Positions 6,644-39,276 of a DNA stretch of 64,000 bases are shown one piece after another. The stretch covers positions 3,006,093 through 3,070,092 of the forward strand of contig OZ241347.1 of assembly GCA_965200295.1 (NCBI GenBank). Direction: 5' to 3'. The translations under genes were made by a program, and so were the position numbers. The first letter of the stretch is position 1. Each line of letters starts with the position of its first letter. The notes under the pieces were generated by a model that had not been told where the DNA came from, made no database searches, and saw only the letters and a list, made by a program, of their open reading frames with translations. This stretch comes from Gammaproteobacteria bacterium (GTDB taxonomy: Bacteria > Pseudomonadota > Gammaproteobacteria > Eutrophobiales > Eutrophobiaceae).

Positions 6644-6737
6644 GGTGGTCTTTGAGATTTGAATACGGAACAGAACCAATATAGAATTCAGCCTCCTGTA
6701 CTCCTGTGTAACGCTCTTCAATAACCCGGGGATAATA

Positions 6738-6980
6738 GTGGAACAAATAGTGGAACAAATTGCCAACGTTCATATCGAAAAACTGCCAGAGGGGGTGTAT
6801 CTGGCTACCAGTGAAGATATCCCAGGCCTGGTTGCTCAGGGACGTAAAATTACCGAAACACTGGAAACCGCCCGCGATGTAGCAAAGAAGTTGCTGGAAG
6901 CAAAAGCGGGGCGCCACCAACAAGCCAAATTGAAACACGCTGAAGATTCGTTCGATTACCCACTGGTTCTTGGCGCCTGA
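6738..6980 (+). CDS. hicB: HicB-family antitoxin (UPF0150)
   Basis: 80 aa containing 'GVYLATSEDIPGLVAQGRKITETLETARDVAKKLLE', typical of HicB. Its stop overlaps the downstream hicA ATG (TGATG). Confidence 0.7.
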   Translation: MEQIVEQIANVHIEKLPEGVYLATSEDIPGLVAQGRKITETLETARDVAKKLLEAKAGRHQQAKLKHAEDSFDYPLVLGA

Positions 6981-7203
6981 TGGGTCGGCTGTCAGGGTTT
7001 AATACCGGCAGGTTATCAGCAAACTGAAAAAAACTGGATTTGAGTTTGACAGGCAGGCTGCCAGCAGCCATGAGATCTGGTTCAATCCCAAAACTGGCAG
7101 ATATACCACCATTCCCAATCATCCGGGCGATATGCCTGAAGGAACTCTGAGGGCGATTCTCAAGCAGGCAGAGGTCGAAGTAAACCTGTTTTTGGAAGCT
7201 TGA
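6980..7203 (+). pseudogene. hicA: HicA-family toxin with an apparent +1 frame disruption near codon 9
   Basis: The ATG at 6980 reads 'MGRLSGFNTG...' and hits a stop after 15 codons. The +1 frame from about 7006 reads 'RQVISKLKKTGFEFDRQAGSSHEIWFNPKTGRYTTIPNHPGDMPEGTLRAILKQAEVEVNLFLEA*', a complete HicA body. Confidence 0.6.
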
Positions 7204-7381
7204 TAGTCACGCGTGGACGGTTGTTTTCCTGCACCCCGTCGGTCCAGCGATACGCATGACCCCACTGATTATACTGCACCGCCACCACGTTATCCGTCCA
7301 GTCGGCCCGCTGCCGGGCAAGCGCACCCTTCCTTGATAAAAGACCTGAAAGATGGCCTACAAAGACAGTTGCAAAGCTCAA
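7160..7381 (-). pseudogene. Short RHS-repeat relic
   Basis: 7207-7330 is nearly identical at nucleotide level to an internal segment of the RHS genes (encoding RADWTDNVVAVQYNQWGHAYRWTDGVQENNRPR). The flanks are unrelated. Confidence 0.7.
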
Positions 7382-7679
7382 GTCCGACAGACTGCCAGGG
7401 GGCGTTAGCCGCCAAGGTCGTCATTCACCCGAGTATCTGGAATCAGGCATCGTCGCCACCCGACGATGTCGCTACAGGCCCGAGGGCGCTTACTCGCTGG
7501 CAGGCCGGCGCCGGGGTCGGCGGGACAACCAGCGCACCAGCAGGGCACCGCCTAGCAGCGCGGCCATGGATGCGATCAGGTTAAGCGTCATGTGTCTTTC
7601 TCCTCGGCGCCAAGCATCACCAGGAACCAGCCCAACAAGGTGATCGCCGCTTTGGATTTGACGATGTCGTGGGCTTCAT

Positions 7680-8576
7680 TCATACGGACAAAATACAGGG
7701 ACATAACCCTGTTGTCAAATGCGGGTCGATGCGCTGGCCCCAGACGTCATAGCGCAGGCGCTGTAAGATAACGCCGTCAGGGTCTACCACACCGACCACG
7801 CTGTCGAGGTGGTCTTTGAGATAATAGCGGGTGTCGTTAGCCGTGCGCGTCCCGGCCTTGTTGTGTTGCTGGGTGATGAGCACCGTGCCCCCGGCCAGCG
7901 TGCGCCGATAGGTGCTGGCGCCGTCGGCGGCGATGACATGCTCTACGGCGCCGAGATAGACCGTGGTCGTGGTACTCGTGCCCTGACCGGTGCGCACCGT
8001 GTCCGTGCGGGTGCTGCGGCTGCGGTCGGGGCCATAAACAAAGGTGGTGGCGTGTGTGCCCCGGGTGATGCCAGCCACCTTGTTAAAAGCCGTGTAGGTC
8101 AGCGTGCGCCCGGCGCCGCTGAGTTGGTTGCCGTTGGCATCGTAGGTGTAGGTGTCAGTACCGGCCTGCACCACAGCGTGCGGGCCGGGAGTGCTCTCAT
8201 CCGTGCTGCCGTAGGTGTACGCGCCCACCCCGCTCTTGCGGGTGATGTTGCCCTGAGCGTCGTAGTCCACAGTGCGGGTGACGCTGGTCCGGCCGCCAGC
8301 GGTCCAGGCCCGCACCAGACGGTTGTGGCGGTCGTAGCTGAGATACTCGCCGAACCGGATAGCGCCCGCCTGCCAGGCGCGCTGACTTAAGTTGCCGAGC
8401 ACATCCCAGCCGTAGCTGTCCTTCTGCAAGCGCACACGCAAGGCCGTGTGGGCATTAATCAGACCCACGCGCCCGGTGCTGTCCGAAATGCTGCGCACCG
8501 TACTGACCGCACCGCCGCCTAAGGTCTCCCGGGTAACCTGCCCGCGCGCGTTGCGATGGTTGATGGTGCGATACAC
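7680..8576 (-). pseudogene. Internal RHS fragment truncated at both ends
   Basis: Nucleotide and amino-acid identity to the RHS body from 'YRTINHRNARGQ...' to 'WGQRIDP'. It then diverges to 'HLTTGLCPCILSV*'. No N-terminal body and no toxin tip. Confidence 0.8.
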
Positions 8577-8718: not shown

Positions 8719-9081
8719 TCAATGCATTTCCACGGAAAATCTTTCAAATTTGATCCCCCCTTTCGTTATAGTAATCTTATCTGTGACGTCGAAGCCGTAC
8801 GAAACATAGCCTAATTTTTTTGTCACCTCTTTGCCCGATAAGAACTCAACGCCTAAATTGTATCCTGTGTCACGTTTTACGAAAAACTGCATTTCGACTT
8901 CCTCGTCTTGCTCTAACCCCTTAACGGTTTGGGTATTTTCGTTAACTGTAACTTGTATCAATGCAATGATTTCATTAGATTGATTTACGATAGTCAGGGT
9001 TGCTTTGCCATCTTTTGAACAATTAACTAATACGAGCATGGCTCCCACCAAGCAGAGAAATTTCAAGCAGCATGTTTTCAT
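8719..9081 (-). CDS. Putative lipoprotein immunity protein for the HNN-motif RHS tip (low GC)
   Basis: 120 aa with a lipoprotein-type signal 'LCLVGAMLVLVNCS'. Its ATG shares one base with the stop of the upstream RHS toxin gene. Paralogous to 12667..13041. Confidence 0.65.
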   Translation of the reverse strand: MKTCCLKFLCLVGAMLVLVNCSKDGKATLTIVNQSNEIIALIQVTVNENTQTVKGLEQDEEVEMQFFVKRDTGYNLGVEFLSGKEVTKKLGYVSYGFDVTDKITITKGGIKFERFSVEMH

Positions 9082-12000
9082 CAGTATTGCGTGACTACAT
9101 CTAACAACGGTTCTGATGGGTCTATCACTATTAGCTGAGAGTGATCGATCATTGTGCCACTTGCGGCGGCTGCCCGCCCAACCGAGTTATTGTGTAAATC
9201 CATTAGCATTTCTCTTATAGGCTGATCTTTTATAATTAGCCCTTCCAGTTCGTGCCCATATCCGACCATAATTGAGGTGATCGGATTAATTTCCTGATAC
9301 ATGCGCTGATTCCATACAGAATGTCTATATGCATCGCCTGTATTATTGTGGCCCGGTATGGCATTCAAAACTTCCTGGCCAATCTCTCTTGCTCGACCAA
9401 AATCAGGAACAAACTTATCTTTAATTGACTGCAACCCTCGTTTAATGCCATCAGACCAACTTTTTGCTGTCCGACGCGTCTCGTCTATAGAACCTTGCGC
9501 CCGTGCCGCCGACGCTTCCGCGTTAAACAACTGCGCCATCGCCGCAGTTAGCGCCCCATTAGCAAACTTGCCACCGGTGATACGGGAGATGGTGCCACCC
9601 GCCACGGCGGCTATCGTGGTGCGACCGATGACCGCCGAGGCGCTGAGGTCGCGGTAAGAGAATCGTCCCATCACCGCCTTGGACAAACCTGCCGCTAAGA
9701 ACCCGTTGCCGAACTGCCCACCCTGTAACTCGGCCAGAACACCCCCGGCTAAGCCGTGGGTCAAAACATGACCGGCGCCGCCCGCAGGTAACCCCGTGAG
9801 CGCCGTGAAATGCTCCCCTATCCCATAGAACGCCGCCGCACTGATACCCCCGAACAAAGCGCCCTTGACCGAGCCGGTGGCAATGCCGCCGGTGACAAAC
9901 CCGAACTGAAAGGCACTCAGCCAGGACTGGAAGACCCAAGCCTGTACGCCTGGTATCGCCAGCAAGGCAATGCTCATGAACGGCGCAACATCCCCGAACA
10001 CCTTGTTTAAGCCCTTAAACAGCTTCCCGATAAAATACCCACTGGGATCGGTGTAGGTCAAGGGGTTATTGAGCACATAGCTGTAGCGGTTCTGTCCCTG
10101 GGTATAGTGGGGAAACTGAATAATCGGGTCGGCCTGTAAGAACCGACCGAGCTTCGGGTCATAAATGCGCCCGTTCATGTGGATTAAGCCGTGAGCATCG
10201 AGCATCTCATGGCCGGTGTAGCCGCGGGGGGTGAAGCGGGTGTGCAGCGGACTGGTCAGGGTGAGCTGGGCCAGTATCTCACTGTTGTCCGGGTCGATGC
10301 GCTGGCCCCAGGCGTCATAGCGCAGGCGCTGTAAGACAACGCCATCGGAGTCCACCACACCGACCACGCTGTCGAGGTGGTCTTTGAGATAATAGCGGGT
10401 GTCATTGGTCGTGCGGGCGCCGCTCTTGTCGTGTTGCTGGGTGATGAGTACTGTCCCCCCGGCCAGCGTGCGCCGGTAGGCGCTGGCGCCGTCGGCGGCG
10501 ATGACATGCTCTACGGCGCCGAGATAGACCGTGGTCGTGGTACTCGTGCCCTGACCGGTGCGCACCGTGTCCGTGCGGGTGCTGCGGCTGCGGTCGGGGC
10601 CATAAACAAAGGTGGTGGCGTGTGTGCCCCGGGTGATGCCAGCCACCTTGTTAAAAGCCGTGTAGGTCAGCGTGCGCCCGGCGCCGGTGCGTTGGTTGCC
10701 GTTAGCATCGTAGGTGTAGGTATCCGTGCCGGCCTGCACCACAGCGTGCGGGCCGGGGGTGCTCGCGTCCGTGCTGCCGTAGGTGTACGCGCCCACCCCG
10801 CTCTTGCGGGTGATGTTGCCCTGAGCGTCGTAGTCCACAGTGCGGGTGACGCTGGTCCGGCCACCGGCAGTCCAGGCCCGCACCAGACGATTGTGGCGGT
10901 CGTAGCTGAGATACTCGCCGAACCGGATAGCGCCCGCCTGCCAGGCGCGCTGACTTAAGTTGCCGAGCACATCCCAGCCGTAGCTGTCCTTCTGCAAGCG
11001 CACACGCATGGCCGTGTGGGCAGTAATCAGACCCACGCGCCCGGTGCTGTCCGAAATGCTGCGCACCGTACTGACCGCACCGCCGCCTAAGGTCTCCCGG
11101 GTAACCTGCCCGCGCGCGTTGCGATGGTTGATGGTGCGATACACGGCGCGTGGGCGGTTGTGCTCCTGCACCCCGTCGGTCCAGCGATACGCATGGCCCC
11201 ACTGATTATACTGCACCGCCACCACGTTATCCGTCCAGTCGGCCCGCTGCCGGGCCGCATCGAAGGTCTGATACGGACGCCCGTATTCATCGAAGGTCTG
11301 GCGGCTGTGGTAGGTCTTCGCCGTAGCGCCGACGCGCACGGTGGTCTCGGTCATGGCAGGACGCCCCAGCCTGTCATAGCGGTGCGCGCGAACATAGCCG
11401 CTACGGGTGTCTGCGACCCGGCTGAGTTGCCCCAGACCATTAGCCGCCGTGTCATACGTCCAGGTCACCTCGGACTCAATATCCGGCTTGGTATCCGCAT
11501 CAGCGCCATCCGGCACTGTGTCCCGGCGCGTCAGCGGGCGACCCAGGGCATCATAAGTCAGCGCTTGGACATTGCCCACCGCATCGGTCTGTTTGACCAG
11601 TTCGTCAAAGCCGTTATACGTGTAGTGGGTTACCCCCCGGTTCGGGTCTGTTTCCTTGACGCGCCGCCCGCGCAGGTCGTAGGCCCAGGCCACGGTCACG
11701 GCAGCATCGCCCGTGCCGGTGGCAGTCGCCACCACCTGCCCCCAGGCGTCGTAACGGTGCGTGACCGGCGTGCCCGCCGCATCGGTAGTCTTAATCACCT
11801 CGCCTAAGGCATTGCGGGTCTCGACGCTGGCCTGATTCTTGCCGTTGACGGTCTTAGCGCTCATGCCCTGATAAGTCATTGTGAGCCGGCTGTTGTGTCC
11901 GGCGCTGTAGTCAGGCAGGGTGGTCTGTGTCACCCGACCCAGCAGGTCGTAGGTGTGGACCGTGCGATACACCGTACCCCCGACATAGTACGGCTCGCTC

Positions 12001-12317
12001 TGCCGGGCCACCCGGCCCAAGGCGTCATAGTCCGTGTCGGTATGTACCCACTGCCCGCCAAAGCCGCGCCGGGCCGTGCGCACTACCCGATCCAGCATGT
12101 CGCGGTAGTCCCGGCTGACCCCGCCGCCAGCTAGCCGGGTCTCGGTGTACCAGGCCGCCTGACCGGGACAGTGAGACACCCCGGCACAGGCCGCCCGCAG
12201 CGCGCCGGTGTGAGAACCGTCAGCGGTCTGCGTAAAATACAACCGTCCCCCGGCCGTGTAGTGGTAGGTGGTCTTGAGACTGGCTGTCACCGCATAACTG
12301 CCGTTAACATCCAACAC
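9081..12317 (-). CDS. N-truncated RHS repeat protein (orphan) with an HNN-motif C-terminal toxin domain
   Basis: 1078 aa, nearly identical to the main RHS body from 'VLDVNGSY...' through the 'MAQLFNAE' core end. It carries a unique approximately 140-aa tip, '...PGHNNTGDAYRHSVWNQRMYQEI...'. Homology with the main gene stops at about 12352. Confidence 0.8.
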   Translation of the reverse strand: MLDVNGSYAVTASLKTTYHYTAGGRLYFTQTADGSHTGALRAACAGVSHCPGQAAWYTETRLAGGGVSRDYRDMLDRVVRTARRGFGGQWVHTDTDYDALGRVARQSEPYYVGGTVYRTVHTYDLLGRVTQTTLPDYSAGHNSRLTMTYQGMSAKTVNGKNQASVETRNALGEVIKTTDAAGTPVTHRYDAWGQVVATATGTGDAAVTVAWAYDLRGRRVKETDPNRGVTHYTYNGFDELVKQTDAVGNVQALTYDALGRPLTRRDTVPDGADADTKPDIESEVTWTYDTAANGLGQLSRVADTRSGYVRAHRYDRLGRPAMTETTVRVGATAKTYHSRQTFDEYGRPYQTFDAARQRADWTDNVVAVQYNQWGHAYRWTDGVQEHNRPRAVYRTINHRNARGQVTRETLGGGAVSTVRSISDSTGRVGLITAHTAMRVRLQKDSYGWDVLGNLSQRAWQAGAIRFGEYLSYDRHNRLVRAWTAGGRTSVTRTVDYDAQGNITRKSGVGAYTYGSTDASTPGPHAVVQAGTDTYTYDANGNQRTGAGRTLTYTAFNKVAGITRGTHATTFVYGPDRSRSTRTDTVRTGQGTSTTTTVYLGAVEHVIAADGASAYRRTLAGGTVLITQQHDKSGARTTNDTRYYLKDHLDSVVGVVDSDGVVLQRLRYDAWGQRIDPDNSEILAQLTLTSPLHTRFTPRGYTGHEMLDAHGLIHMNGRIYDPKLGRFLQADPIIQFPHYTQGQNRYSYVLNNPLTYTDPSGYFIGKLFKGLNKVFGDVAPFMSIALLAIPGVQAWVFQSWLSAFQFGFVTGGIATGSVKGALFGGISAAAFYGIGEHFTALTGLPAGGAGHVLTHGLAGGVLAELQGGQFGNGFLAAGLSKAVMGRFSYRDLSASAVIGRTTIAAVAGGTISRITGGKFANGALTAAMAQLFNAEASAARAQGSIDETRRTAKSWSDGIKRGLQSIKDKFVPDFGRAREIGQEVLNAIPGHNNTGDAYRHSVWNQRMYQEINPITSIMVGYGHELEGLIIKDQPIREMLMDLHNNSVGRAAAASGTMIDHSQLIVIDPSEPLLDVVTQY

Positions 12318-12666: not shown

Positions 12667-13041
12667 TTAGATGTCCGGGTCGGACGTTTCAACTAACACG
12701 CTGTTAAATTCTATACCTGTCTCGTGGATGATAACTTTATCTAATATGCTTGTCTCTCTCACAAGATAACCAACATCTTTCCATATTGTTCTTCCTGAAC
12801 TAAATTCAACATCGATATGGTAATCCGAAGGGCGTTTTACCAGAAAACGCATTTTAGTTTGTTCGCCATGCTTCAGATCTCTAACCATTTGCATATTTTC
12901 ATCAACTGTGACACGAAGTACAACAACCGTCTCACTAGACTCATTCACTATAGTCAATTCTGCTGTCCCTTCTCTGAAACAACCTTCAAATGCGAGTAGA
13001 ACACCAACTAAACAGAGAAATTTCAACCAGTGCGTTTTCAT
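12667..13041 (-). CDS. Putative lipoprotein immunity protein, paralog of 8719..9081
   Basis: 124 aa beginning 'MKTHWLKFLCLVGVLLAFEGC...', similar to 'MKTCCLKFLCLVGAMLVLVNC...'. Start overlaps the stop of orphan cassette 13041..14345. Confidence 0.65.
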   Translation of the reverse strand: MKTHWLKFLCLVGVLLAFEGCFREGTAELTIVNESSETVVVLRVTVDENMQMVRDLKHGEQTKMRFLVKRPSDYHIDVEFSSGRTIWKDVGYLVRETSILDKVIIHETGIEFNSVLVETSDPDI

Positions 13042-14345
13042 CAGTATTGCGTGACGGCATCTATAAATGGTTCTGATGGATCTATTACTATCAGATGAGA
13101 GTGATCGATCATTGTGCCACTTGCGGCGGCTGCCCGCCCAACCGAGTTATTGTGTAAATCCATAAGCGTTTCATTTAGCGGTTGTCTAGTCAATAGATTT
13201 TTAAGTTCGTATAAGTACCCAGCAGTATATGAAGTAACAGGATTGATCTCTTGGTACATCCGTTGACTCCACACGGCGTGTCTTTTTGCATCACCCATGT
13301 TGTTGTGACCGGGCGATGTATCCAAGACTTCCTGGCCAATCTCCCCTGCTCGACCAAAATCAGGAACAAACTTATCTTTAATTGACTGCAACCCTCGTTT
13401 AATGCCATCAGACCAACTTTTTGCTGTCCGACGCGTCTCGTCTATAGAACCTTGCGCCCGTGCCGCCGACGCTTCCGCGTTAAACAACTGCGCCATCGCC
13501 GCCGTTAGCGCCCCGTTAGCAAACTTGCCGCCGGTGATACGGGAGACAGTGCCGCCCACCACGGCGGCTATCGTGGTGCGGCCAATAACCGCCGGGGCGC
13601 TGACGTCCCGATAGGAGAACCGACCTATCACGGACTTGGATAAGCCCGCCGCTAAGAACCCGTTACCGAACTGTCCACCCTGCAACTCAGCCAGCACCCC
13701 GCCGGTCAACGCATGCGCGCCAAGATGTGTGAACCCACCTGTGGCCTCTATAGCCTGAAAGTAGTGCCCCACGGCGCTAAACGCCTGCGCCGATACATAA
13801 GTAAAGAGGCCTGCCTTCAACACCCGTTGCAAGGACACCCCGCCAGCATAGGCGTTCCCAGCCGCCGCCGTGGCGCAGGTCAGAGCATTGCCACTGAGGC
13901 AGTGTGCCAGGGTAGAAAACTGACGCAGTACCGGGACCTTGCTGAACAAGACCTCCCCAAAAATGCCGTTGATGATGCCGCCCACTACCTTACGTAACAG
14001 CTTCCCGATAAAATACCCACTGGGATCGGTATAGGTCAAGGGGTTGTTCAGCACATAGCTGTAGCGGTTCTGACCCTGGGTAGAGTGGGGGAACTGAATA
14101 ATCGGGTCGGCCTGTAAAAACCGGCCGAGCTTCGGATCATAGATGCGCCCGTTCATGTGGATTAAGCCGTGAGCATCGAGCATCTCATGGCCGGTGTAGC
14201 CACGGGGGGTGAAGCGGGTGTGCAGCGGACTGGTCAGGGTGAGCTGCGCCAGTATCTCACTGTTGTCCGGGTCGATGCGCTGGCCCCAGACGTCATAGCG
14301 CAGGCGCTGTAAGACAACGCCGTCGGAGTCCACCACACCGACCAC
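13041..14345 (-). CDS. Orphan RHS C-terminal cassette (core end plus an HNN-motif tip paralog). GTG start, possibly silent
   Basis: 434 aa starting inside the RHS body ('VGVVDSDGVVLQRLRYD...'). The tip contains '...PGHNNMGDAKRHAVWSQRMYQEI...', a paralog of the 9081 tip. A conserved junction lies upstream (14346-14483). Confidence 0.75.
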   Translation of the reverse strand: MVGVVDSDGVVLQRLRYDVWGQRIDPDNSEILAQLTLTSPLHTRFTPRGYTGHEMLDAHGLIHMNGRIYDPKLGRFLQADPIIQFPHSTQGQNRYSYVLNNPLTYTDPSGYFIGKLLRKVVGGIINGIFGEVLFSKVPVLRQFSTLAHCLSGNALTCATAAAGNAYAGGVSLQRVLKAGLFTYVSAQAFSAVGHYFQAIEATGGFTHLGAHALTGGVLAELQGGQFGNGFLAAGLSKSVIGRFSYRDVSAPAVIGRTTIAAVVGGTVSRITGGKFANGALTAAMAQLFNAEASAARAQGSIDETRRTAKSWSDGIKRGLQSIKDKFVPDFGRAGEIGQEVLDTSPGHNNMGDAKRHAVWSQRMYQEINPVTSYTAGYLYELKNLLTRQPLNETLMDLHNNSVGRAAAASGTMIDHSHLIVIDPSEPFIDAVTQY

Positions 14346-14483: not shown

Positions 14484-14948
14484 TTACCCTGATGGGTGAC
14501 ATTCAGTTACATGGGGGGCATTAGTGTTAATTTTTCTAATCCGATTCTTTGTAATATTTTCCTCTAAAACGCCTTCTCTAATCCACACATGACCATTCCC
14601 AACCATCAAACCCCGCCAAGTAAAAAACAGATCTTCAATTTCTTGTTTCAAAATAGCTTCTTTAACGTTCGAATTGAAAATGACTTCGTAGCTTTTAATA
14701 AAATCAGCTTTAGTCTCGAGCCACAACACCTCTCGGTTTCCCAATGAAATCGGTAATGGATATGCGATAAGCTCAGAAATTCGTTTTTTATCATCTGCCT
14801 TCGTAGCAGCTTTAAGGACATTTACAAACGCTATCTGTTCCGACGTAACTTCGTCTGCGGATATAGACTCACAAGCATTAGAATTAATAGCGCTAATAAC
14901 CAATATTACTAATAATATTTTCACTAACAGCCCCCTTGAAACATGCAT
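14484..14948 (-). CDS. Orphan immunity protein, paralog of the lysozyme-tip immunity at 26542..27006. Signal peptide present
   Basis: 154 aa beginning 'MHVSRGLLVKILLVILVISAINSNACE...', about 80% identical to 26542..27006. Confidence 0.7.
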   Translation of the reverse strand: MHVSRGLLVKILLVILVISAINSNACESISADEVTSEQIAFVNVLKAATKADDKKRISELIAYPLPISLGNREVLWLETKADFIKSYEVIFNSNVKEAILKQEIEDLFFTWRGLMVGNGHVWIREGVLEENITKNRIRKINTNAPHVTECHPSG

Positions 14949-15023
14949 ATCTCTTCATAGCGTCGACTGGTCAAGCCTTTTGATGTAGTCTTTGTTGGAG
15001 AATTTCTTACTGAATTCTCAGCA

Positions 15024-15293
15024 TTAAACAACTGCGCCATCGCTGAGGTCCTGGTAAGAGAACCGTCCCATCACCGCCTTGGATAAGCCTGCGGCCAAAA
15101 ACCCGTTACCGAACTGTCCGCCCTGCAACTCAGCAAGGACACCCCCGGCCAGACCATGGGTCAGGACATGACCGGCGCCGCCCGCAGGTAACCCCGTGAG
15201 CGCTGTGAAATGCTCCCCTATCCCATAGAACGCCGCCGCACTGATACCCCCGAACAAAGCGCCCTTGACCGAGCCGGTGGCAAACCCGAGCAA
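15024..15293 (-). pseudogene. Displaced and decayed relic: RHS core end fused by deletions to a collapsed GH24 lysozyme tip, frameshifted
   Basis: Reads 'ATGSVKGALFGG...GRFSYQDLS' and then is out of frame. Continuing in the -1 frame gives 'AMAQLFNAENSVRNSPTK|TTSKGLTSRRYEEICM', which matches both ends of the lysozyme tip of 26982..37826 with the middle missing. Confidence 0.7.
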
Positions 15294-15297
15294 GAGT

Positions 15298-15903
15298 TCA
15301 TATTTCTACCTCAACATGCCGAATCCACTTACCATCGTAATAAAACAATATCACGGTAGATGACGGCGATGAGATCAAAATTGGAATGCTAAGTTTTCGT
15401 TTATCAATATCGGAAACATTAATTTTCGAACCATCTTTCATGTAACTGAACTGTATTGTTTCCAGATTTATACCGGTATAACCATAATAAAGATACATCC
15501 CTTTTAGTCCAATACCATCATCCAAGACATCCTTAACTACAAACGATTTTGCATGACTCCCTTTAACTGCAAATACCAAAAAATAGTCAAATCCATGCAC
15601 TAAATTTGAAACATGTTCAATATTGCTGTCTTTGTCGTAGAATTCATTTCTTTTTCTGGCTAGAAATAGAATGCTACTTTTGATATCACCGTAATCGACA
15701 AAGTCTAATACATATGGTGAGCCATCACTTCCATACGGATTAATATCTGGAAATCGGTCGCCGTGTACTGCTTCCAGTCCTTTAGTCGCTGCTAACTTGT
15801 CCATAAGTTGGAATACACTCTCCTTACTCTCAGATGAAGCCCAAGACAGCAGGGCCATTGAAAAACCAATAAGCAGAAGTAAACGAGAGACAATTCTGGC
15901 CAT
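15298..15903 (-). CDS. Putative periplasmic immunity protein for the M15-like peptidase tip (signal peptide, low GC)
   Basis: 201 aa beginning 'MARIVSRLLLLIGFSMALLSWASSE'. Lies immediately downstream of RHS 15906..18554. Confidence 0.6.
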   Translation of the reverse strand: MARIVSRLLLLIGFSMALLSWASSESKESVFQLMDKLAATKGLEAVHGDRFPDINPYGSDGSPYVLDFVDYGDIKSSILFLARKRNEFYDKDSNIEHVSNLVHGFDYFLVFAVKGSHAKSFVVKDVLDDGIGLKGMYLYYGYTGINLETIQFSYMKDGSKINVSDIDKRKLSIPILISSPSSTVILFYYDGKWIRHVEVEI

Positions 15904-15905
15904 TG

Positions 15906-26541: not shown

Positions 26542-27006
26542 TTACCCTGATGGATGACATTCAGTTACAGGGGGGGCATCAGTATTAATTGTCGTAATCC
26601 AATACGTTGTAATATCTCCGTCTGAAATTACTCCTGTAATCCACACATGACCATGCCCAACCATCAAGCCCCGCCAAGTAAAAAATAGAGCTTCAATTTC
26701 TTGTTTCAAAATAGCTTCTTTAACATTCGAATTGAAAATAACTTCGTAGTTTTTAATAAAATCAGCTTCAGTCTCGAGTCGCAACAGCTCTCCATTTTCC
26801 AATGAAATCGATAATGGATATGCGATAAGCTCTGAAATTCGTTTCTTATTATCTACCTTTGTGGCAGCTTTTAAGGCATTTACAAATGCTACCTGTTCCG
26901 ACGCAACTTCATAGGCGGATTCAAATTCACAAGCATTAGAATTAATAGCGCCAATAACCAATATTACTAATAATATTTTCACTAACAGCCCCCTTGAAAC
27001 ATGCAC
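26542..27006 (-). CDS. Periplasmic immunity protein for the GH24 lysozyme tip (signal peptide). GTG start overlaps the toxin 3' end by 25 nt
   Basis: 154 aa beginning 'VHVSRGLLVKILLVILVIGAINSNACE...'. Low GC. Immediately downstream of the lysozyme-tipped RHS. Confidence 0.7.
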   Translation of the reverse strand: MHVSRGLLVKILLVILVIGAINSNACEFESAYEVASEQVAFVNALKAATKVDNKKRISELIAYPLSISLENGELLRLETEADFIKNYEVIFNSNVKEAILKQEIEALFFTWRGLMVGHGHVWITGVISDGDITTYWITTINTDAPPVTECHPSG

Positions 27007-30000: not shown

Positions 30001-33000
30001 TGCCCGCCAAAGCCGCGCCGGGCCGTGCGCACTACCCGATCCAGCATGTCCCGATAGTCCCGGCTGCCCCCGCCGCCGGACAGCCGGGTCTCGGTGTACC
30101 AGGCCGCCTGACCGGGACAGTGAGACACCCCGGCACAGGCCGCCCGCAGCGCGCCGGTGTGAGAACCGTCAGCGGTGTGCGTAAAATACAACCGTCCCCC
30201 GGCCGTGTAGTGGTAGGTGGTCTTGAGACTGGCTGTCACCGCATAGCTGCCGTTAACATCCAACACCTGCTCGGATTGGGTCGGCAGTCCGTGGGCGTTA
30301 TAGGCGCGGGTCCGGCGCAACGGGCGACCCAGGCAGTCTTTTTCCAGTGTCACAAACCGCCCAGCGCTGTCGTACTCTGTTGTGTCGGTGTTGCAACGGG
30401 TGACGCCGGCGGCGGTGACCGCAGCCCGGATGCGGTGGCCGAACTTGTCATAGTCATAGGTGGCGGTGTGTTTGAGGTCGGTCTTATCCGGCTCCCGTAC
30501 CTCAGTCTTGAGCAAGCCTTTGCGGTGACCGCTGGTGTAGTAGCTGAACTCGGCGGTGCGGCTTGCCGTGATCTTGCTGTCGTAGCTGTCGCTGTTGGCC
30601 GTCTCGTTGCGCTTGCGCGTCACCACACTCTTCGTGAGCCGCCCCAACTCTTTCGACTCGGTATCCGTTGCCGCGCCGTACGTGTTGGCGGTCATTTGCC
30701 AGAAGCGTTTAGCATTGGCGTGGTCTTCGGTGGTCGTTGTTATTTCGGTGGGGTTGCCATAGCTGTCCACCACAGTGTCGGTGGTGACCGTGATGAGATC
30801 ATCGCCGGCTTCGGTGGTGGTGACGTTGTTCTTGGTGCTGGTCACGGGCAGGTCATAGGTCGTCTCTACCGCCTGCGCCAGGTACGGTTGCAGGGCGCCT
30901 AAGTCAGTGGTGGGTTGGGCGACATTCCAGCCGGACTGATACCCCTTGAGTCGCCAGGTATTGGCCGCCGTCCGCAGCAGGTGCCCGTCCTCGGTCTTCA
31001 CCTCGGTCTTCAGGGGATAACCGGTGTAGGGGAAGTCCTGGCGATACGTAGTGGTGGTCGCTACCTCCGTTTGCAAGTCCATGGTCGTTAAGGTCTTAAA
31101 GCCCAGCAGCCCCCGACCGCCGGCCTGTATTTTTGCCTGCTCGTACAGGTAACAGACGCTGCTCAAAGCGGCTGCGTTGGCGCTCGTGGGGGCGCTGGAG
31201 TCGACCCGCGTGAGTACGTACAGCGGCGCCATCAACTCCAGCACTGGTGCATTGCCGGCGAGGGCAGACAGGGAGTCGGTCAGTGTGCTGTCCGCCCAGG
31301 GGGTGTTCAGCGCAGTGTAAAAGTCAGACGCATTCAGGCTGGCGGTCTGTGCCTCCCAGCAGAAGTTGGCGCCGCCCCAGGTGAAGCAGCGCTGCCGCTG
31401 TGTGCGGGTGGTGTGCAACCCGTCGATGCGGGCATAAGCGTCGGTGCGGCTCAGGGATTCATAGGTGAGCACGGTCTTGGCGCCCAGGCCGTTGGTGATG
31501 GCGGTAATGAGGTGCGGGCGGGTGGTGGTGTTATGGTGGTAGGTGGCGAGGCTCTCCGTACTGGTACCGGACTCCGGCAGATGCAGCAGGTCGGCGTTGC
31601 CGTCGCCGTTCACATCTGCAGTGAAGTACTGCTCGGCATCCTTGCCGCGGGTGGTGCGCACGCTGACCGCGGCGGCATAAGCGCCGGTTTTGGGTGAGAA
31701 ACGCTGTACGCGCAGAGCCTTGCCCTTCACGTCGTGGTAGAGCGCATCCGGGTAACCATCGCCGTTGTCGTCGTACAAGGACAGCGCCGAGGACGCCTGG
31801 GCGCCGGTCGCGACGTTCGTCAGTTGGGTCGCGTCGGTAAAGCCGGCGCCGGTACTCAGGCGGTAATGCCAGTTGCCGGTCCACTGGTAGTTGTTCCTGG
31901 CCTTCTCGTACCACTTGCCGACAAAGTAGAGGAGATCAGAGAGCCCGTCGCCGTTCAGGTCTGTACTACGGAGCCCTTTCGGACTGAGACCGGTGGCTGC
32001 CAGCGGGAAGCCGGCCGCGGCGCCATAGGGCTTGAACTCGATGCTATTCTCCTCGTCTGTTTGTCGAAACACATGCAGGCGGCGCAGTGCGTGCGTGGAC
32101 TGACCACTGGAGCTTCTTTGCAGATCAAACTGTATGGCGCTGTCATAGCCCCAGGTGATCAGGTCTGCGCGCCCATCCCCGTCCATATCCGCCAGCGCCA
32201 CATCTGCCACCCGTAGCGAGCGCCAGCGTAGCAGCTCCAGGCCGGTCGCGGTCGCAGCCTGGGGCGTAAACTCGATGGGCAGTCGCGTCTCCCCGGTGTA
32301 GGCATAATACCGGCTGGAGTCAGGTTTGGCGGCAGTGTTGCGTTTGAGATAGCGTACTGCCAGCGTGTAACCGGCGGGGCCATAGCGCACCGGCTGCCCC
32401 TGTTGCGGCGCCGGATGCGAAAGCTCAACTAAGCGATAGGCGTCCAGCAACCCGTCCGAGTTCAGGTCGGCATAGCGGTAACGGTCGCCGAACAGCCGGT
32501 CAGACACCGCAGTGCCGGCGCTGAGGCGCCAGCCGCCCGTGGCTTGTGTCCCGGTGGTGGTCTGCGGCACCGCCAGATGCAGCCGGGTCTCCTTATTTTT
32601 GGCGCTGTACACCAGCAGGTCGTGGCGCCCGTCGCCGTTGTAATCCACCACCTCGGTGTGCACGCGCAGGTTCTCGCCGTAATTGGATGTGCCGTAACCA
32701 TCGTCGTATTCCAGAGAGGTGCCCCCGCCTACGAAGACGCCAGATACCAACCGGCCAGTGGTTTTGTCGGCCAGGGCATAACGCAGCCGGTGTTTATCGC
32801 TGCTGGCTTCGGTCCAGACCAGATCGGTGAGCCCGTCGCCGTTGATGTCTGCGGGGTTGAAGTCCACCGGCGACCACTCACTCTCCGTGTTCAGGGTCAG
32901 CGTGGCCGCGGCTGCTTGTTTGAACAGCGGGGTCGGGTCAGACCAGGCAAACGTGGTTTCCGGCTGGCACACCGTCGTCCCTGAACCCACACACGCCTTG

Positions 33001-36000
33001 ACCCCAACCAGACGGGAGAGCGCATGAGTCGTAGCGCTCTGATAGCGCAGGCGGTAATTGCGCACGGCCTTCACGCTGCCGGTCGTGCCCGCCGAATGCA
33101 CCGTGATGGTAGTGAGGCGCTGGGCGCTTTGCAACGGGCGCCCGGCCAGATAGCCGCGGGTGATGTCGCCCCGGGTGAGGTCGTAGCCGAAGGCCACCTT
33201 GGCTCTGGCGGTCTGGGTGGTCTTGCCCGGGTCGCCGTAGGCATAACGAATCTCACGGAGGCGGTGGCCCTTTGCATCCAGTGTGTAGTGGTAGGTGATT
33301 TTGTTACCGACGCTGTCCTTGACCTGTTGCAGCGCCCAGGTCAGCGCTGGGTCGGTGGGGGATGCGTCGGTCAATTTAGCATAGAGCTTGTGCTCACTGG
33401 CGTTGGCGCCGGATGCGCCGTAGGTGGCCACCGAGCCGTCTTTACGGGTCACTTCAAAGTAGTCCGGGTGACCGCCTGTATCGTGCTTGACGGTGACGGT
33501 TGAGAAACTGTCGATCTCGGTCTTGTATTCGGTATTGGCCTCACCGTATTTACGGTTCTTGTTGGCGGCGCTGTCGCTGAGCGTCAGACGCTGCCCATCC
33601 AGGCAAAAGCGGTCGTTGCGGGTGAAGGTAAGCGGTTGGGCGGCGCCGTCCTGGGCCAGGGTCTGGCGGCAGCGGGTAATAGCGGAAAGTCCCTCGATGC
33701 CCCAGCCGATGCCGACCGGGCCGTTGCCGCGCTGGCTGTTGTAGCTGAGCGCCAGGGGTGGGATCACTCCGGCGGTGCCGGGCGGCAGGGGAATCTCAAT
33801 GCGGTAGGTGGCGGCGCCGGACTCGTCGGCCCGGAAGCTGCCGGGCAGGGTTCCGGTACGGTCGATCTTGCTTTTCTCGGTGTCGTTAATGACTGCATTA
33901 GGCTGCGTCCGGGCAGGCGCCGGGGGGCGGGGCACCGACGGCGTGCCGACCGTGACCGTGACAAGGGCGCTCCAGGGGCCACAATATTGCCCGTCACAGG
34001 CGCGCACCCGGTAGCCCCAGGCGCCGTTGGTCAGGGCGCTGAAGGCCTTACTGGTCTGGCTGCCGGTGTCGTGCGTCATCCAGTTTGCGCCGTTGCGTCG
34101 GGCCTGCAACTCGTAGCGGGTCGCCCCGGTGACCGGCTGCCAACTGACGCTGTGGTCGCCAGTGCTGCTGGCCGGGGCGGTCAGCCCGGCCGGGGCGGCC
34201 AGTTGTCGTTGCGGGGTCGCCGTGGCGCGCTCGCTCCAGGGAGAGTTGCCGCGCGCATTGACGGCTTGCACCTGCACTGCGTACTCAAGGCCGTTGGTGA
34301 GATTATCAATGACGGTCTCTGTGGTCTTCGTGGTGTGCGAGTGTGCGCGCCAGTTGGAAGCTGTGGCGAGCCGGTAACGCACGTTGTAGCCGGTCAGGGC
34401 GCTGCCGTTATCAGCCGGGGCGCGCCAGGTGACGGTCAGTTGGTCATCGCCCGGGGTCAGGTTGGGGGCATCAGGCTGCGCTGGCGGGCCGGGGACGGCC
34501 ACAGACAGGGCGGCGCTCCAGTTCCCGCAGGTGACGTTATCCTGGCGGCAGGCGCGCACCCGGTAGCTCCAGGCGCCGGCGGTCTTGCCGGTAATGGGTT
34601 TTGTGACGCCGGTGGTGACGGTGTAGGTGGTATCCCAACTGGCGCCGTCATCGTCGCTCTCTTGCAGCTGGTAGCGGGCGGCGCCAGTGACCGCATCCCA
34701 ACTGACAGTGTAATCCCCGTTCGCGTCCGGGGTAGTGGCCGTGAGGTTGGCCGGCACCTCAAGGCGCGGTACGGTGACCGCAAGAGACTGGCTCCAGCCA
34801 CTGCACACGCTGGCAGATTTACACGCGCGCACCCGGTAGGCCCAGTCGCCGGGGGCCTTGTCGGCGAAGGTCTTGTCCGTGCCGGTGGTGATGGAATAGG
34901 TGGCGCTCCAGGTTGCGCCGTCATCACTGCTTTCTTGCGCCTCATAGTAACTGGCGCCGGTCACGGCATCCCAGCTCAGGGTGTAGCCGCCCTGTGCCGT
35001 AGGGGTGGTGGCGCTGACATTGGCCGGGGCCGGGGTGACGCTGACCGTGACAGTGTAACTGGCGCTCCAGTTACCGCAGCTGGCACTGCGGTGGCGGCAG
35101 GCGCGCACCTGATAAGTCCAGGCGCCACTGGTCTTGCCGGCAAAGACTCTGCGGGTGCTGCTTGAGGTAGAGTAAGTGGCGTCCCAGGTCTTGCCGTCGT
35201 CATCGCTCTCCCGTAGCTGATAGCGTACGGCATGAGTGACAGTATTCCAACTGACCGTGTAGTCGCCGCCCACGGTGGGCGTGGTGCTGACAAGGCCGGG
35301 CGGCGCGCCGAGCCGGGGCACGGAGACGGTGATCGATGCGCTCCAGTCACTGCAGGCCGGGCTGGCGCCGCTGTTGCAGGCGCGCACCTGGTAAGTCCAG
35401 TTGCCGGTCCCCTGACCCGAGAACGCCCGGCGAGTACCGTTGCGCAGGGTATAGTCATCGTCCCAGGTCTTGCCGCCATCATCACTTTCCCGTAGTTCAT
35501 AGCGGGTGGCATGGGTGACGCTGTTCCAACTCACAGTATAGTTGCCCCGGGCATCCGCACGGGCGCCGGTGAGGCCGGTTGGGATCGCAGGTGTAGTCAC
35601 GGGGCGAGACACCACTACCGTGATAGGGCTGCCCATCGGCGCATTATTCAATAGCAACCGGTAGCTGTACTCTCCATCGCTCCGAGCAGTAAAGTCATGC
35701 GAGGTGGCATTGGCGGGAATGCCAGAGAGCGTCACCCAACTGCCCTGCGCGCCCACCCGCTCTTGCAACTCCCGGCAGAGGCGCCCGCCCCCGAAGCCGA
35801 TGCTGAAACACCGGGATAAGGCCCAGCGCACCGTATAGTCACCGTCCGGGCTGGGGTTGGGCGAAGCCACCAGAAGGGCACTCACCGTGACGGTGTGAGT
35901 GCTGCCCCAGTCACCACAGCCACCCGCATTACAGGCCCGGACCTGATAGTTCCAACTGCCGGATGCCACATTATTGAAGGCTTTGGATGTAGCCGTACCG

Positions 36001-37826
36001 GCGTCGTGCTCAGCCCATGCTCCGCTCGTGCCTTGACGCGCCCGGACCTTATAACTGGTGGCGCCGCTGGCAGAGTTCCAGGTGATGGTGTGGGCGCCGG
36101 CGCTCTTGGCCGGGCCATCTGCCGGCGGGGCAGCCAGGGGAACACCCACGGTAGCGTCACTCCATTCCGACCAGCCGCCGGCATTCTGTGCACGTATCCT
36201 TATCCGATAGGTGGCGCCGTTGGTCAGGCTGCGAATGGTAGTGCGGCGTGTAAGTCCGGTGACAGGATGTTGCCGGGTGGCGCTGCCGTCACGTTTGAAA
36301 GAGATCCCATAAGCGGTAATGGCTGCGCCGTTGCCGTCCGGGGTAGTCCAGGTCACCTGCAACTCGCCGGTGCCGGTGGTCACCGTCGGGCGGTCAGGCT
36401 TATCAGGTTCGTCCTGGGTACTCACGTTGACGGTGGCGCCGGGACTGAAATCAGACCAGCCCTCACTGTTCCCGGCCCGGACATGGACGGTGTAAGTGCC
36501 TGCAGCCAACCCGGAAACCGTGGCGCGGGTGGCGGCGCTGCCCGTGGTGGTGCGTTGCCAGGTGCCGCTGCCGCGGCGATACTGCAGGGTATAATCGGTA
36601 ATGGCATTACCGTTATCATCCGGCGCCGTCCAGGTGGCAGTGAACTGCCCTACCCCACCGGTCAGGGTGGGTCGGGCCGGACGCTCGGGCCGGTCAGCCG
36701 GAGGCGGCGCAACGGTTAACGTGGCGCTCTTTGTGGCAGAGGTGCCGCCGGGACCGGTGCAATAAAACTTGTCCGTGCGGGTGACAGTACGGTCTTTGGC
36801 TAACCAGTTGCCGCGGGTGCTGAAATCCTTCCCGTTCAGGTAACAGGCAGTGGCATTGGTGGATGACCAGCTTAACGTGGAGGAGGCTCCGTAGGCGACT
36901 GATGCCGGGCTCCAACTGATTGACGCCGTCGGTTTGGGAGTGCCGGTAATGGTCAGGGTGGCGCTCACCGTGGCGGAGGTGCCGCCGGGACCGGTGCAGT
37001 AAAACTTGTCCGTGCGGGTGGCGGTGCGATCTTTGGCTAACCAGTTGCCGCGGGTGCTGAAATCCTTCCCGTTCAGGTAACAGGCAGTGGCATTGGTGGA
37101 TGACCAGCTTAACGTGGAGGAGGCTCCGTAAGCGACTGATGCCGGGCTCCAACTGATTGACGCCGTCGGTTTGGGAGTGCCAGTGATGGTCAGGGTGGCA
37201 CTCACCGTGGCGGAGGTGCCGCCAGGGCCGGTGCAATACAAACTGTCGGTGCGCGTGTGTCGCTGGTTGGTGGCCCGCCAGCTATAGCCGGTGCCGCGCT
37301 CGGTTCTGTTCAGATAACAGGCGGTGGCATGGGTTGAAGACCAGATTAAGTTGGATGACCCGCCGTAGGCGATGGATGACGGCGACCAACGCATCGTGGC
37401 GGTGGGCTTGGGGGAGGTGACCGTGACACTTACCGGGCCGGCCGCGTCCCAGCAGGAGAGGCTCCCGAACACCGAGAGGCACTGCGAGGTTTTATAGCTG
37501 TAGGCGCCTGCTGCCTTGCCAGTGAAAGTCCTGGATGTGACGCTCCAGGGATACGTGCCTACCCACAACCAGCTCCCACTGCCAGTCTTCTCTAATAACT
37601 GTGTGCGAATAGAGTAGCTGGCCGGCCTGCTCCAGGTCACCGTATAAGATCCGTCCGTACTCGTAGCGGGGCTGACCGTCAGAGTGGGGGTCTGCGCCGC
37701 GGCGGGTAAGGAGGCGCCGGTGAACAGGCACAGGGACAACAGCAACGACCACAGGGTCCTGCTGCTGCCGACATAAGCAGGTATGGACCGGGATAGCGCC
37801 GACATACACCAACGGAGATCACGCAC
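26982..37826 (-). CDS. Giant secreted RHS/Tc-toxin BC-like protein (probable start 37805). Domains: signal peptide, Ig/FN3 repeats, SpvB-like domain, FG-GAP beta-propeller, RHS/YD shell and core, GH24 lysozyme tip
   Basis: Signal peptide '[40 protein letters not shown]'. Three tandem approximately 81-aa repeats. SpvB motif '[44 protein letters not shown]'. FG-GAP-like 'DxNGDGxxD' motifs at least six times. Numerous YD repeats. Core motifs '[13 protein letters not shown]...MAQLFNAE'. C-terminal '[21 protein letters not shown]...[44 protein letters not shown]...GLTSRRY' is a phage-type (GH24) lysozyme. Confidence 0.85.
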   Translation of the reverse strand: [3614 protein letters not shown]

Positions 37827-38044
37827 GAGGAAAGCCTCTGGTGTTGTTGGTTGTTCGTTTCTGCCCTGTTAAGCTGCAGGGCATGTGATTCGCGGCTCAC
37901 TCTATGAGACCGTCGCGGGACTGTCAAGCGTTTTTTGAGTTTTGTTTTTGAGTTTTATTCAGTTTAAGGCAGACTATGCACTGCTGTAACCGTGTAAAAA
38001 ATGAACGCAGAACCTCCGTTACGACCCTGGCAAACAACCTATTC

Positions 38045-39271: not shown

Positions 39272-39276
39272 TATAA

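Follow-up and report, generated by a model that had tools for sequence, protein, structure and literature searches.

A predicted Sec-dependent RHS toxin locus persistently paired with a circularly permuted type II secretion operon

Here we describe a 64,000-nucleotide stretch of a gammaproteobacterial genome (assembly GCA_965200295.1, contig OZ241347.1, positions 3,006,093 to 3,070,092; hereafter the window), in which the genes of a type II secretion system (T2SS) lie on both sides of an array of rearrangement hotspot (RHS) genes headed by an open reading frame (ORF) of 3614 aa. What is new here is the conserved physical pairing of a signal-peptide RHS gene of the fused TcB-TcC ("BC") type with a T2SS operon. 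Loci of the window's clade, relatives and metagenome contigs are cited by the labels L027-L172. The T2SS genes of the window are as follows.

3..155, plus strand: 3' end of gspG (major pseudopilin), its translation ending ...KDPWGNDYRYQSPG...GADNQADGDDENRDIVSWE before the stop; it continues the T2SSG gene of L081
295..4898, plus strand: gspH-I-J-K-L-M and an XpsN/GspC-like gene (ORFs 295-816, 806-1198, 1191-1850, 1801-2784, 2744-3829, 3826-4398 and 4395-4898), assigned by Pfam/NCBIfam and collinear with homologues in L169-L172
4913..6643, plus strand: gspE, secretion ATPase and terminal gene of the clade's operon (Pfam T2SSE 7.5e-141, MshEN)
38045..39271, plus strand: gspF, first gene of the clade's operon (Pfam T2SSF), its start set by 408-aa homologues
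39441..41738, plus strand: gspD, secretin, start uncertain (Pfam Secretin, three Secretin_N and GspD N0); the operon break lies 3' of it

The placement of gsp blocks on both sides of the array (G…N-E upstream, F-D downstream), first made in a reading of the sequence alone (hereafter the sequence-only reading), was borne out by Pfam and NCBIfam, and an Xps-like T2SS core (D, E, F, G, H-K, L, M and a C/N-type gene) is all present and intact; gspG, truncated here by the window edge, is complete in L081. In the gspH-M block, Pfam matches were obtained to GspH, N_methyl (N-terminally methylated pseudopilins), T2SSK_1st, PilN, and T2SSM_b, and the block as far as the XpsN-like gene also contains an NCBIfam match to T2SS protein J and weak matches to GspC_delta/XpsN. 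The prepilin peptidase gene (gspO) is not among the genes of the locus, a common situation for T2SS loci.

Between the two blocks, the dominant feature is a single gene.

26982..37826, minus strand: main RHS gene, 3614 aa, characterized by Pfam and PDB sequence matches, conservation of the signal peptide and motif position

The encoded protein begins with a predicted extended signal peptide (aa 1-44), followed by an array of immunoglobulin-like (Ig) and fibronectin type III (fn3) domains to approximately aa 1330, SpvB (~1335-1519), an FG-GAP propeller (~1660-2030), TcdB_toxin_midN (~2065-2270), an RHS shell (~2400-3276) with the motif DPSGYF at aa 3277, a Gly-rich hydrophobic pretoxin of ~180 aa (aa 3277-3456, corresponding to 27459-27998), and a phage-type lysozyme (aa 3475-3606). 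The Pfam matches to SpvB (1.9e-13), FG-GAP_3 (1.5e-14), and TcdB_toxin_midN (2.1e-19) are hallmarks of TcB proteins; together with RHS_repeat (2.2e-13 for the full-length protein and 8.3e-21 for aa 2501-2900), they agree with the earlier identification of an RHS/Tc-BC-like toxin, and the C-terminal Phage_lysozyme domain is matched at 2e-35. A PDB sequence search with the main protein returned weak matches only, to Rhs proteins and YenB. The core-end motif …NNPLTYADPSGYF, of the PxxxxDPxG[LY] type, is located at aa 3277 of the main gene and recurs in all five truncated copies of the array (see below). The sequence after the autoproteolysis motif DPSGYF constitutes a 338-aa cargo, that is, the pretoxin, ending …AQLFNAE, and then the lysozyme; we take this boundary motif to recall the VENN/ELYN boundaries of CdiA. 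The TcB-like half (SpvB, FG-GAP propeller, and TcdB_toxin_midN) and the RHS shell, which corresponds to TcC, are predicted to form a closed cocoon.

Signal peptides were called throughout by a heuristic (hydrophobicity and the -3/-1 rule) rather than by SignalP. By this measure, the main RHS protein has a positively charged n-region, a hydrophobic core, and the cleavage context AAA/QTP, as the sequence-only reading had it, and four homologues from other genomes have N-termini of this build, although their sequences differ (…STAEA/QT, …FPAAA/QT, …LPAVA/LG); in each of them, the signal is followed by the same first domain, TLTVSP.TST.GSYTV.W. The start of the RHS protein (M/V-RD…) is conserved, so the signal is unusually long, at ~44 aa. 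The N-terminal 1300 aa gave fn3/Ig-type matches only, with no PAAR, prePAAR, or VgrG-binding region. The earlier report that markers of a type VI secretion system (T6SS) are missing nearby was upheld among the larger ORFs of the window, none of which matched a VgrG, PAAR, or Hcp family (ORFs 12667-13041 and 26542-27006 and non-ORF DNA were unscanned); the small immunity-like ORFs that were scanned gave no family match, no T6SS family was seen in the related loci examined, and neither the window nor the ten related loci examined contained a TcA-like gene. Taken together, the locus is very probably a Sec-dependent polymorphic-toxin locus of the fused BC RHS class.

This architecture extends well beyond the window. 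A 195-aa pretoxin query retrieved 4446 cluster representatives at E ≤ 1e-3 (1573 at E ≤ 1e-10), with the pretoxin always lying ~130-190 aa from the C-terminus, whether the protein is 2000-3800 aa long or, as in many cases, of orphan size. The three large members that were compared with Pfam all proved to be SpvB/FG-GAP/RHS proteins, and signal-peptide-like N-termini are present in at least 13 of 22 large members. The combination of signal peptide, BC-RHS, pretoxin, and tip is thus widespread and uncharacterized rather than peculiar to the window gene. Against Pfam DUF637, the pretoxin scores 19-22 bits in five window copies and in the L081 copy (cut-off 26.6), and 30 bits in orphan 2. Large signal-peptide Rhs proteins have been recognized as a class in a review of myxobacteria (PMC10433427), and "T2SS" (in the sense of a signal peptide) and "TcdB/TcaC" were both listed as export contexts of RHS toxins in an earlier catalogue (Zhang et al., 2012; PMC3482391).

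The array as a whole spans approximately 31 kb between gspE and gspF. In addition to the main gene, it contains five orphan modules, a single core remnant, and candidate immunity genes with signal peptides. Every RHS ORF between 7680 and 37826 lies on the minus strand, confirming that the array points away from gspF and towards gspE.

7210..8576, minus strand: distal RHS core remnant, a short fragment (7210-7318) and a 298-aa ORF (7680-8576)
8719..12317, minus strand: orphan 1, an RHS C-terminal (RHS-CT) ORF (9081-12317) with a DUF6973 tip, and a 120-aa immunity-like ORF (8719-9081)
12667..14345, minus strand: orphan 2, an RHS-CT ORF (13041-14345) with a DUF6973 tip and a divergent pretoxin, and a 124-aa immunity-like ORF (12667-13041)
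14484..15283, minus strand: stray lysozyme-immunity paralogue (14484-14948), with a pretoxin remnant (15041-15283)
15298..18554, minus strand: orphan 3, an RHS-CT ORF (15906-18554) and a 201-aa immunity-like ORF with a signal peptide by the heuristic (15298-15903)
18490..23234, minus strand: orphan 4, an RHS-CT ORF (19581-23234) with no tip family match, and an immunity-like ORF (18490-19230, likely start near 19077)
23362..23700, minus strand: 112-aa immunity-like ORF of lipoprotein type, with a signal-peptide/lipobox-like N-terminus and no Pfam match
23960..25213, plus strand: transposase of an insertion sequence (IS) of the IS256 family (Mutator; Pfam Transposase_mut 8.9e-70), within the orphan 5 tip
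25075..26403, minus strand: orphan 5, an RHS-CT ORF with its tip disrupted by the IS (Pfam DUF637 only)
26542..27006, minus strand: 154-aa signal-peptide immunity candidate for the lysozyme tip, overlapping the main-gene stop

The array copies are 94-99% identical to the main gene, with variable 5' breakpoints (aa 2419, 2503, 2744, and 3147) and a 3' end that always falls at aa 3456: orphan 1 is 97% identical to aa 2503-3456, orphan 3 is 99% identical to aa 2744-3456, orphan 4 is 98% identical to aa 2419-3456, and orphan 5, whose reading frame runs into the transposase gene, is 94% identical to aa 3147-3454. The core remnant is 95% identical to aa 2908-3196, its short fragment matching L081 RHS DNA, and the pretoxin remnant beside the stray 154-aa ORF (14484-14948, a near copy of 26542-27006) is 90% identical to aa 3332-3413. 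Homology is kept through the end of the pretoxin, a point at which recombination can exchange one tip for another. Those seen are the lysozyme, DUF6973 in two orphans (Pfam 2.8e-11 in orphan 1, which also matches DUF637, and 3.5e-10 in orphan 2), three families without a Pfam match, and an M23 peptidase in two relatives (L081 and L084); a PDB sequence search with two of the Pfam-less tips gave no match.

Directly downstream of each tip comes a small ORF whose N-terminus resembles a signal peptide or that of a lipoprotein, and all six such ORFs tested were positive by the heuristic, including that of orphan 1 (signal-peptide/lipoprotein-like). These small ORFs are candidate cognate immunity genes; the pairing of the lysozyme tip with the 154-aa ORF recurs in L081, and the 112-aa ORF at 23362..23700 probably forms a pair with orphan 5, the IS now lying between them. 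The tips and the signal-peptide immunity ORFs would fit toxins that act on peptidoglycan or in the periplasm. GC content drops from ~0.63 to 0.43-0.48 across the tip/immunity stretches. The tip of orphan 3 (15906-16300), which had no Pfam or PDB sequence match, contains …SGAAHIRGDAVDL… and …RHYHFQ… (H-x6-D…HxH-like), by eye like the zinc motifs of LAS/M15-type peptidoglycan peptidases; an M15-like identity, considered from these by-eye motifs, is not claimed.

An RHS gene lies upstream of gspF and divergent from it in all six window-clade GspF contigs that extend far enough to include the upstream gene (GspF 81-100% identical), namely the window, L084, L085, L169, L170, and a 13,953-bp contig in which a GspF homologue and two RHS homologues apparently occur together, judged only from matches sharing that contig size; L081 and L171 match the gspE side of the window. 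Outside the clade, L086 (GspF 56% identical, five concatenated T2SS proteins 63%) carries a homologous RHS gene divergent from gspE, the first gene of an operon with the order E-F-G…N-D. In a search that used the TcB region as query, the window and L086 RHS proteins were mutual best matches outside their own clades at 57-58% identity, and their divergence parallels that of the T2SS. The flanks of the module vary by genome lineage (gyrB, nitrile hydratase, H+-pyrophosphatase (H+-PPase), pnp, toxin-antitoxin genes, and 2-oxoacid dehydrogenase). The junction between the RHS 5' end and the first gsp gene persists while the identity of that first gene (E vs. F), the position of gspD, the permutation, and all outer flanks have changed. 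L082 was considered as a third independent junction and rejected, being a 95-97% copy or strain variant of the L086 RHS gene, spacer, and first 1165 nt of gspE.

Comparison with other T2SS loci also defined how the window order arose. The sequence-only reading held that an island splits the locus between gspE and gspF, a view that failed the synteny check. In 80 listed T2SS loci from GTDB species genomes, taken from a GspE scan of genome contigs in which the matches listed were all relatives of at most 60% identity (GspE 48-60%), nearly all have the order E-F-(G)-H-I-J-K-L-M-N-D. The close clade was recovered via protein searches (GspF 78-86%, GspE 81-97% identical), and in two of its members, L169 and L170 (GspE 82-84% identical), the order is contiguous, RHS(-) followed by gspF-D-G-H-I-J-K-L-M-N-E, with the RHS gene divergent from gspF and gspG within ~22 bp 3' of gspD. 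Opening a circle of RHS(-), F, D, G…N, and E between D and G gives exactly the window order. The window order of G…N-E, array, and F-D is therefore RHS, F-D-G…N-E in circularly permuted form, with gspD and gspG parted; gspE is the last and gspF the first gene of the clade's operon, so the operon was broken at gspD/gspG and not split at gspE/gspF. Simple insertion between gspE and gspF is ruled out by L169 and L170, in which the RHS gene is already upstream of gspF.

The permuted form is also found in L081 (same species, shorter array), in L171 (GspE 97% identical, with gyrB upstream of gspG), and in L172/L085 (83% identical), where G…E is followed by IS66 and IS4 elements, the array, and F, and where nitrile-hydratase genes lie upstream of gspG. 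L084 (86% identical), with an RHS gene of 3756 aa and an M23 tip next to F-D and then an H+-PPase gene, is probably permuted as well. The permutation may have originated by tandem duplication of the module and loss of the ends or by recombination between flanking RHS copies. In L081, 352 bp of gspL are missing (window 3128-3479; L081 ~3680), leaving ORFs of 162 aa and 78 aa, and either real decay of the T2SS in one strain or an assembly error would account for this; GspL of the window is full length.

Two intergenic features bear on the junction and on the break.

37827..38044, no strand: divergent RHS/gspF spacer, holding the RHS promoter on the minus strand
39272..39440, no strand: 160-bp multi-hairpin repeat in the gspF-gspD spacer, folding energy -75.5 kcal/mol

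An RHS-facing, sigma-70-like promoter (-35 TTGACA, 17-nt spacer, -10 TAGAGT; 37927 to 37899) was located by a scan that returned one site where 0.1 were expected, and both of its hexamers fall inside blocks invariant in L084 and L085. The spacer had been proposed to hold the promoters of both RHS and gspF: the first part of this proposal stands, and for the second no consensus promoter facing gspF was found in the spacer scan. The hairpin repeat, ~160 bp with four or five strong hairpins, is scattered through intergenic spacers, with copies in the window at 197-341 (gspG-H spacer), 39272-39440, 44878-45035, and 58260-58417, and partial copies at 41741-41800 (just after gspD), 45177-45227, 53943-54008, 61447-61478, and 63814-63889. 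Further copies lie in L081 at 65-145, just before gspG, and in L086 at 16314-16459 (gspN-gspD spacer, 79%), and there is none in L169 or L170. A 5' part of the element follows gspD, and a 3' part precedes gspG in L081, so the gspD/gspG break may have fallen inside a copy of the 160-bp repeat; with the element being a mosaic of hairpins and missing from L169 and L170, this is no more than a suggestion. The repeat may supply homology for operon rearrangements.

Cognate substrates are known to be encoded beside dedicated T2SS operons, as with pulA, lapA/Hxc, and sslE, and the RHS-T2SS pairing lends comparative support to a functional link of the pulA/pul type. Under this proposal, the RHS gene and the T2SS operon would be inherited as one module, with the RHS promoter facing away from the first gsp gene as that of pulA does from pulC-O. 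The protein would be exported by Sec, fold in the periplasm, and encapsulate its cargo by autoproteolysis, after which the adjacent T2SS would pass it through the outer membrane or display it there; the ~1300-aa Ig/fn3 stalk would then touch the target cell, the hydrophobic pretoxin would help carry the cell-wall hydrolase into the target periplasm, and periplasmic immunity proteins would shield the producer and its kin. We consider that the adjacent T2SS may well carry the RHS protein across, or display it on, the outer membrane, with confidence that stops a little short of even. The stronger claim, that the T2SS subtype seen here is dedicated to secreting a ~390-kDa Sec-exported BC-cocoon RHS toxin or to displaying it on the cell surface, is offered more tentatively, with doubt outweighing belief. 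Such a route was thought to be undescribed in the sequence-only reading, an assessment overtaken by the catalogue of Zhang et al. (2012; PMC3482391) and by Bcn-A of Xanthomonas perforans, a 1398-aa RHS-family bacteriocin with an immunity gene, for which supernatant activity was lost in an xpsD mutant and the authors concluded that secretion occurs by the T2SS (PMC7259588). By virtue of the xpsD result, a T2SS route for an RHS toxin has already been proposed with genetic support.

Several lines of evidence weigh against T2SS export. A neighbour-joining tree places the window clade, L086, and (L087, L089) together and well apart from the GTDB representatives, with poorly resolved internal order, and in L087/L088 and L089/L090 a T2SS of this type occurs with no RHS gene. 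One ancestral pairing and one loss make up the simplest history, two independent gains being equally parsimonious, and the linkage may be explained by a single ancestral juxtaposition that was vertically inherited. None of the 80 listed distant T2SS loci has an RHS gene within 10 kb, and the T2SS loci without one indicate that this T2SS has other work. Of 78 TcB-like metagenome loci found in a scan with a TcB-region alignment, only one or two are near gsp genes (roughly 0.3 estimated by chance), L099 being the sole clear case and L107 having only a weak secretin match. In L027 (Methylomonas sp. TEB, 11805-17531), a 1908-aa autotransporter with 10 PATR repeats and an Autotransporter beta-domain, a cargo of the type V secretion system (T5SS), lies between gspE and gspF of an otherwise canonical operon, which shows that location within a gsp operon does not by itself make a large secreted protein a cargo of the T2SS. 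Size is a further obstacle: the three-turn RhsA cocoon measures 86 x 65 Å and the four-turn Tc cocoons are larger (PMC8765631), published T2SS figures are an effector 55 Å wide and an endopilus of at least 60 Å (PMC10550240), and the 338-aa cargo suggests a Tc-sized cocoon here, which would probably be wider than known T2SS cargo and argues, though not decisively, against passage through the secretin. At ~390 kDa, the RHS protein would be by far the largest known T2SS substrate. Lastly, the broken operon of the window lineage and the gspL deletion of L081 suggest relaxed constraint in places.

Alternatively, the RHS gene may be an inherited neighbour without functional coupling, having landed by the T2SS once in an ancestor and stayed there during shuffling driven by RHS genes and repeats. 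After Sec export, the protein would then remain in the periplasm or outer membrane, or leave by lysis, by vesicles, or by an exporter common to the signal-peptide BC-RHS class. A single origin is as parsimonious as any alternative, sister lineages (L087/L088 and L089/L090) retain the T2SS without the RHS gene, 76-77 of the 78 TcB-like loci lie away from gsp genes, and the L027 autotransporter and the size of the cocoon relative to T2SS cargo point the same way. The L082 RHS copy, moreover, carries a dead 5' piece of gspE, so that adjacent DNA travels with RHS duplications, and canonical Tc toxins exit by lysis dependent on the type X secretion system (T10SS) (PMC10847048). Set against these points, the junction has outlasted no fewer than three rearrangements (the change from an E-first to an F-first order, the move of gspD, and the permutation) with all outer flanks replaced, and the neighbouring gsp gene differs (gspE vs. 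gspF), which means that the junction was formed anew rather than left as it was; it is also usual for T2SS substrates to be encoded away from their machinery, making the lack of linkage elsewhere weak evidence. We regard simple inheritance of the neighbour as a real possibility, albeit one held with reservation.

Two further explanations invoke partners encoded elsewhere. The BC cocoon could dock by its beta-propeller onto a TcA-type translocator encoded at another site and be released canonically as a Tc-like ABC complex, for which SpvB, the FG-GAP propeller, and TcdB_toxin_midN as TcB hallmarks and the weak similarity to YenB may be cited. Neither the window nor any of the ten related loci examined, however, yielded a TcA-like gene; assembly of Tc complexes takes place in the cytoplasm, whereas the cleavable signal called by the heuristic would direct this protein to the periplasm; and the cell-wall-hydrolase tips, putative periplasmic immunity, and orphan array follow the logic of antibacterial polymorphic toxins rather than that of insecticidal ones. 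This explanation is accordingly improbable. A conventional T6SS Rhs effector with a VgrG/PAAR partner outside the window would be in keeping with most characterized Gram-negative Rhs toxins, which are T6SS cargo, and the survey was confined to the 64-kb window and related loci. The protein nevertheless begins with a conserved Sec-type signal and 1300 aa of Ig/fn3 domains in place of a PAAR, prePAAR, or VgrG-binding region, no T6SS family was matched in the 64 kb or the related loci, and we know of no T6SS Rhs protein with a TcB-like half. The T6SS reading is close to refuted and is the least probable of all.

Other observations were made at the related loci. At L099 (582-7096), a high-GC metagenome contig, a signal-peptide TcB-like gene is divergent from gspD, which is directly followed by gspF; its product has SpvB/FG-GAP domains, no RHS repeats, a Gly-rich C-terminus, and, close to its start, an apparent frameshift. 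The sister lineage that lacks the RHS gene encodes a giant protein (>1859 aa in L087 at 18934-21203 and >2885 aa in L088 at 16938-19207, as called), convergent with and just downstream of gspD, with fn3 and Autotransporter/Plug/OMP_b-brl_3 matches. In L082, a 576-aa ankyrin-repeat protein is encoded at 6717-8447, directly after the truncated gspE copy and flanked on either side by RHS fragments; its N-terminus is signal-peptide-like, and it may be an immunity or host-interaction protein. Twelve TcB-like metagenome loci (L143 8021-9718, L147 879-2627, L134 3202-4473, and nine more among L091-L157) have an upstream, same-strand neighbour with Por_Secre_tail, the C-terminal sorting domain of the type IX secretion system (T9SS), which hints that BC/RHS-type toxins may pair with a different two-step exporter in Bacteroidota-like genomes.

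Within the window, the array and the permuted module are bordered by smaller genes, among them a toxin-antitoxin pair.

6738..7204, plus strand: hicB (6738-6980) and a frameshifted hicA (6980-7204), between gspE and the distal array end

The hicA frame is broken after 15 codons in the window and intact in L081, a 99%-identical metagenome contig (7181-7405), and hicB is intact in both; the L081 families here are DUF1902/HicA_toxin. A second small toxin-antitoxin cluster, assigned by eye only, occupies a low-GC patch (0.49) at 56760-57692 and consists of XRE/HigA-like (56760-57047), HicB-like (57243-57497), and HicA-like (57498-57692) ORFs. On the strand opposite to gspD and 3' of it, a putative GspA/ExeA-like ATPase of 430 aa (AAA_22/AAA_16) is encoded at 41965-43257 (minus strand), adjoined by an IS4-type DDE transposase at 43696-44805 (plus strand), at the right-hand edge of the permuted module. 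As for markers of a mobile island, no tRNA gene, Rfam match, or integrase was found in the window.

The pairing addresses a puzzle, namely how Sec-dependent RHS/Tc-like cocoon toxins exit the Gram-negative cell. The characterized routes of RHS and Tc toxins are the T6SS, which involves no signal peptide, and T10SS lysis for Tc, with one genetic hint of the T2SS (Bcn-A). The locus sets one machine beside one very large cargo in a pairing that is concrete and open to testing, kept promoter to promoter through rearrangements and chromosomal settings. If the functional link is true, the size range of T2SS cargo is widened and the T2SS joins the delivery routes of polymorphic antibacterial toxins that attack the cell wall. 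If the T2SS is a dedicated exporter, this would further explain how the signal-peptide BC-RHS class, with its thousands of pretoxin-sharing clusters, crosses the outer membrane, and the secretin would let through a cargo far exceeding the width of every T2SS substrate known so far, or would aid its assembly outside the cell. In other lineages, BC-RHS export may fall to different two-step systems, given the 12 TcB-like loci with a T9SS-sorting-domain neighbour. If the link is false, the locus is still a clear illustration of the way in which an operon is circularly permuted under the influence of RHS arrays and short repeats beside it.

Among known systems, Bcn-A shares with the window protein the combination of an RHS-family antibacterial toxin and an immunity gene (a candidate in the window); it differs in being 1398 aa long and in needing accessory ORFs, its T2SS dependence was shown as loss of activity only and not as protein transport, and the report makes no mention of the gene adjoining the xps operon (PMC7259588). 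WapA of Bacillus subtilis and the large signal-peptide myxobacterial Rhs proteins (PMC10433427) are likewise Sec-dependent and very large, with contact-dependent antagonism and C-terminal polymorphic toxins, although WapA belongs to a Gram-positive envelope with no outer membrane to cross and neither has a described link to a T2SS operon. The pretoxin of CdiA (Pfam DUF637/PT-VENN) resembles that of the window in being a Gly-rich conserved region before a variable toxin with a short motif at the boundary (…QLFNAE vs. VENN/ELYN), whereas the DUF637 match is weak here (19-30 bits, above the cut-off in one copy) and the carrier is an RHS cocoon instead of a T5SS filament. A substrate gene beside its operon is also the arrangement of pulA/pulC-O in Klebsiella, Hxc/lapA in Pseudomonas aeruginosa, and sslE-gsp beta in E. 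coli, pulA being divergent as well; the cargos of these systems differ in being enzymes or lipoproteins of at most ~165 kDa, none of them an encapsulating cocoon or a polymorphic toxin.

The RHS cage and DPxG-type boundary are shared with T6SS Rhs effectors (RhsA of P. protegens, Tse5, Tre23, and the rhs genes of E. coli and Salmonella), as are the polymorphic C-terminal toxin with cognate immunity (putative in the window), orphan CT/immunity arrays kept by core homology, and low-GC tips. Unlike these effectors, the window protein has a signal peptide and a TcB-like half in place of a PAAR/prePAAR/VgrG adaptor, and its polymorphism boundary lies ~180 aa past the DPxG motif, at …AQLFNAE. With the Tc BC subcomplex (TcdB2-TccC3 of Photorhabdus and YenB-YenC of Yersinia), it has in common the N-terminal SpvB domain, the FG-GAP propeller, the TcdB mid region, the RHS shell, and a C-terminal cargo of ~36 kDa after a conserved autoproteolysis motif. 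It departs from that subcomplex in being a single fused chain with a Sec signal, a 1300-aa Ig/fn3 extension, and no TcA nearby, and in combining a Gly-rich pretoxin and a peptidoglycan hydrolase as cargo with candidate immunity genes, an orphan array, and linkage to a T2SS.

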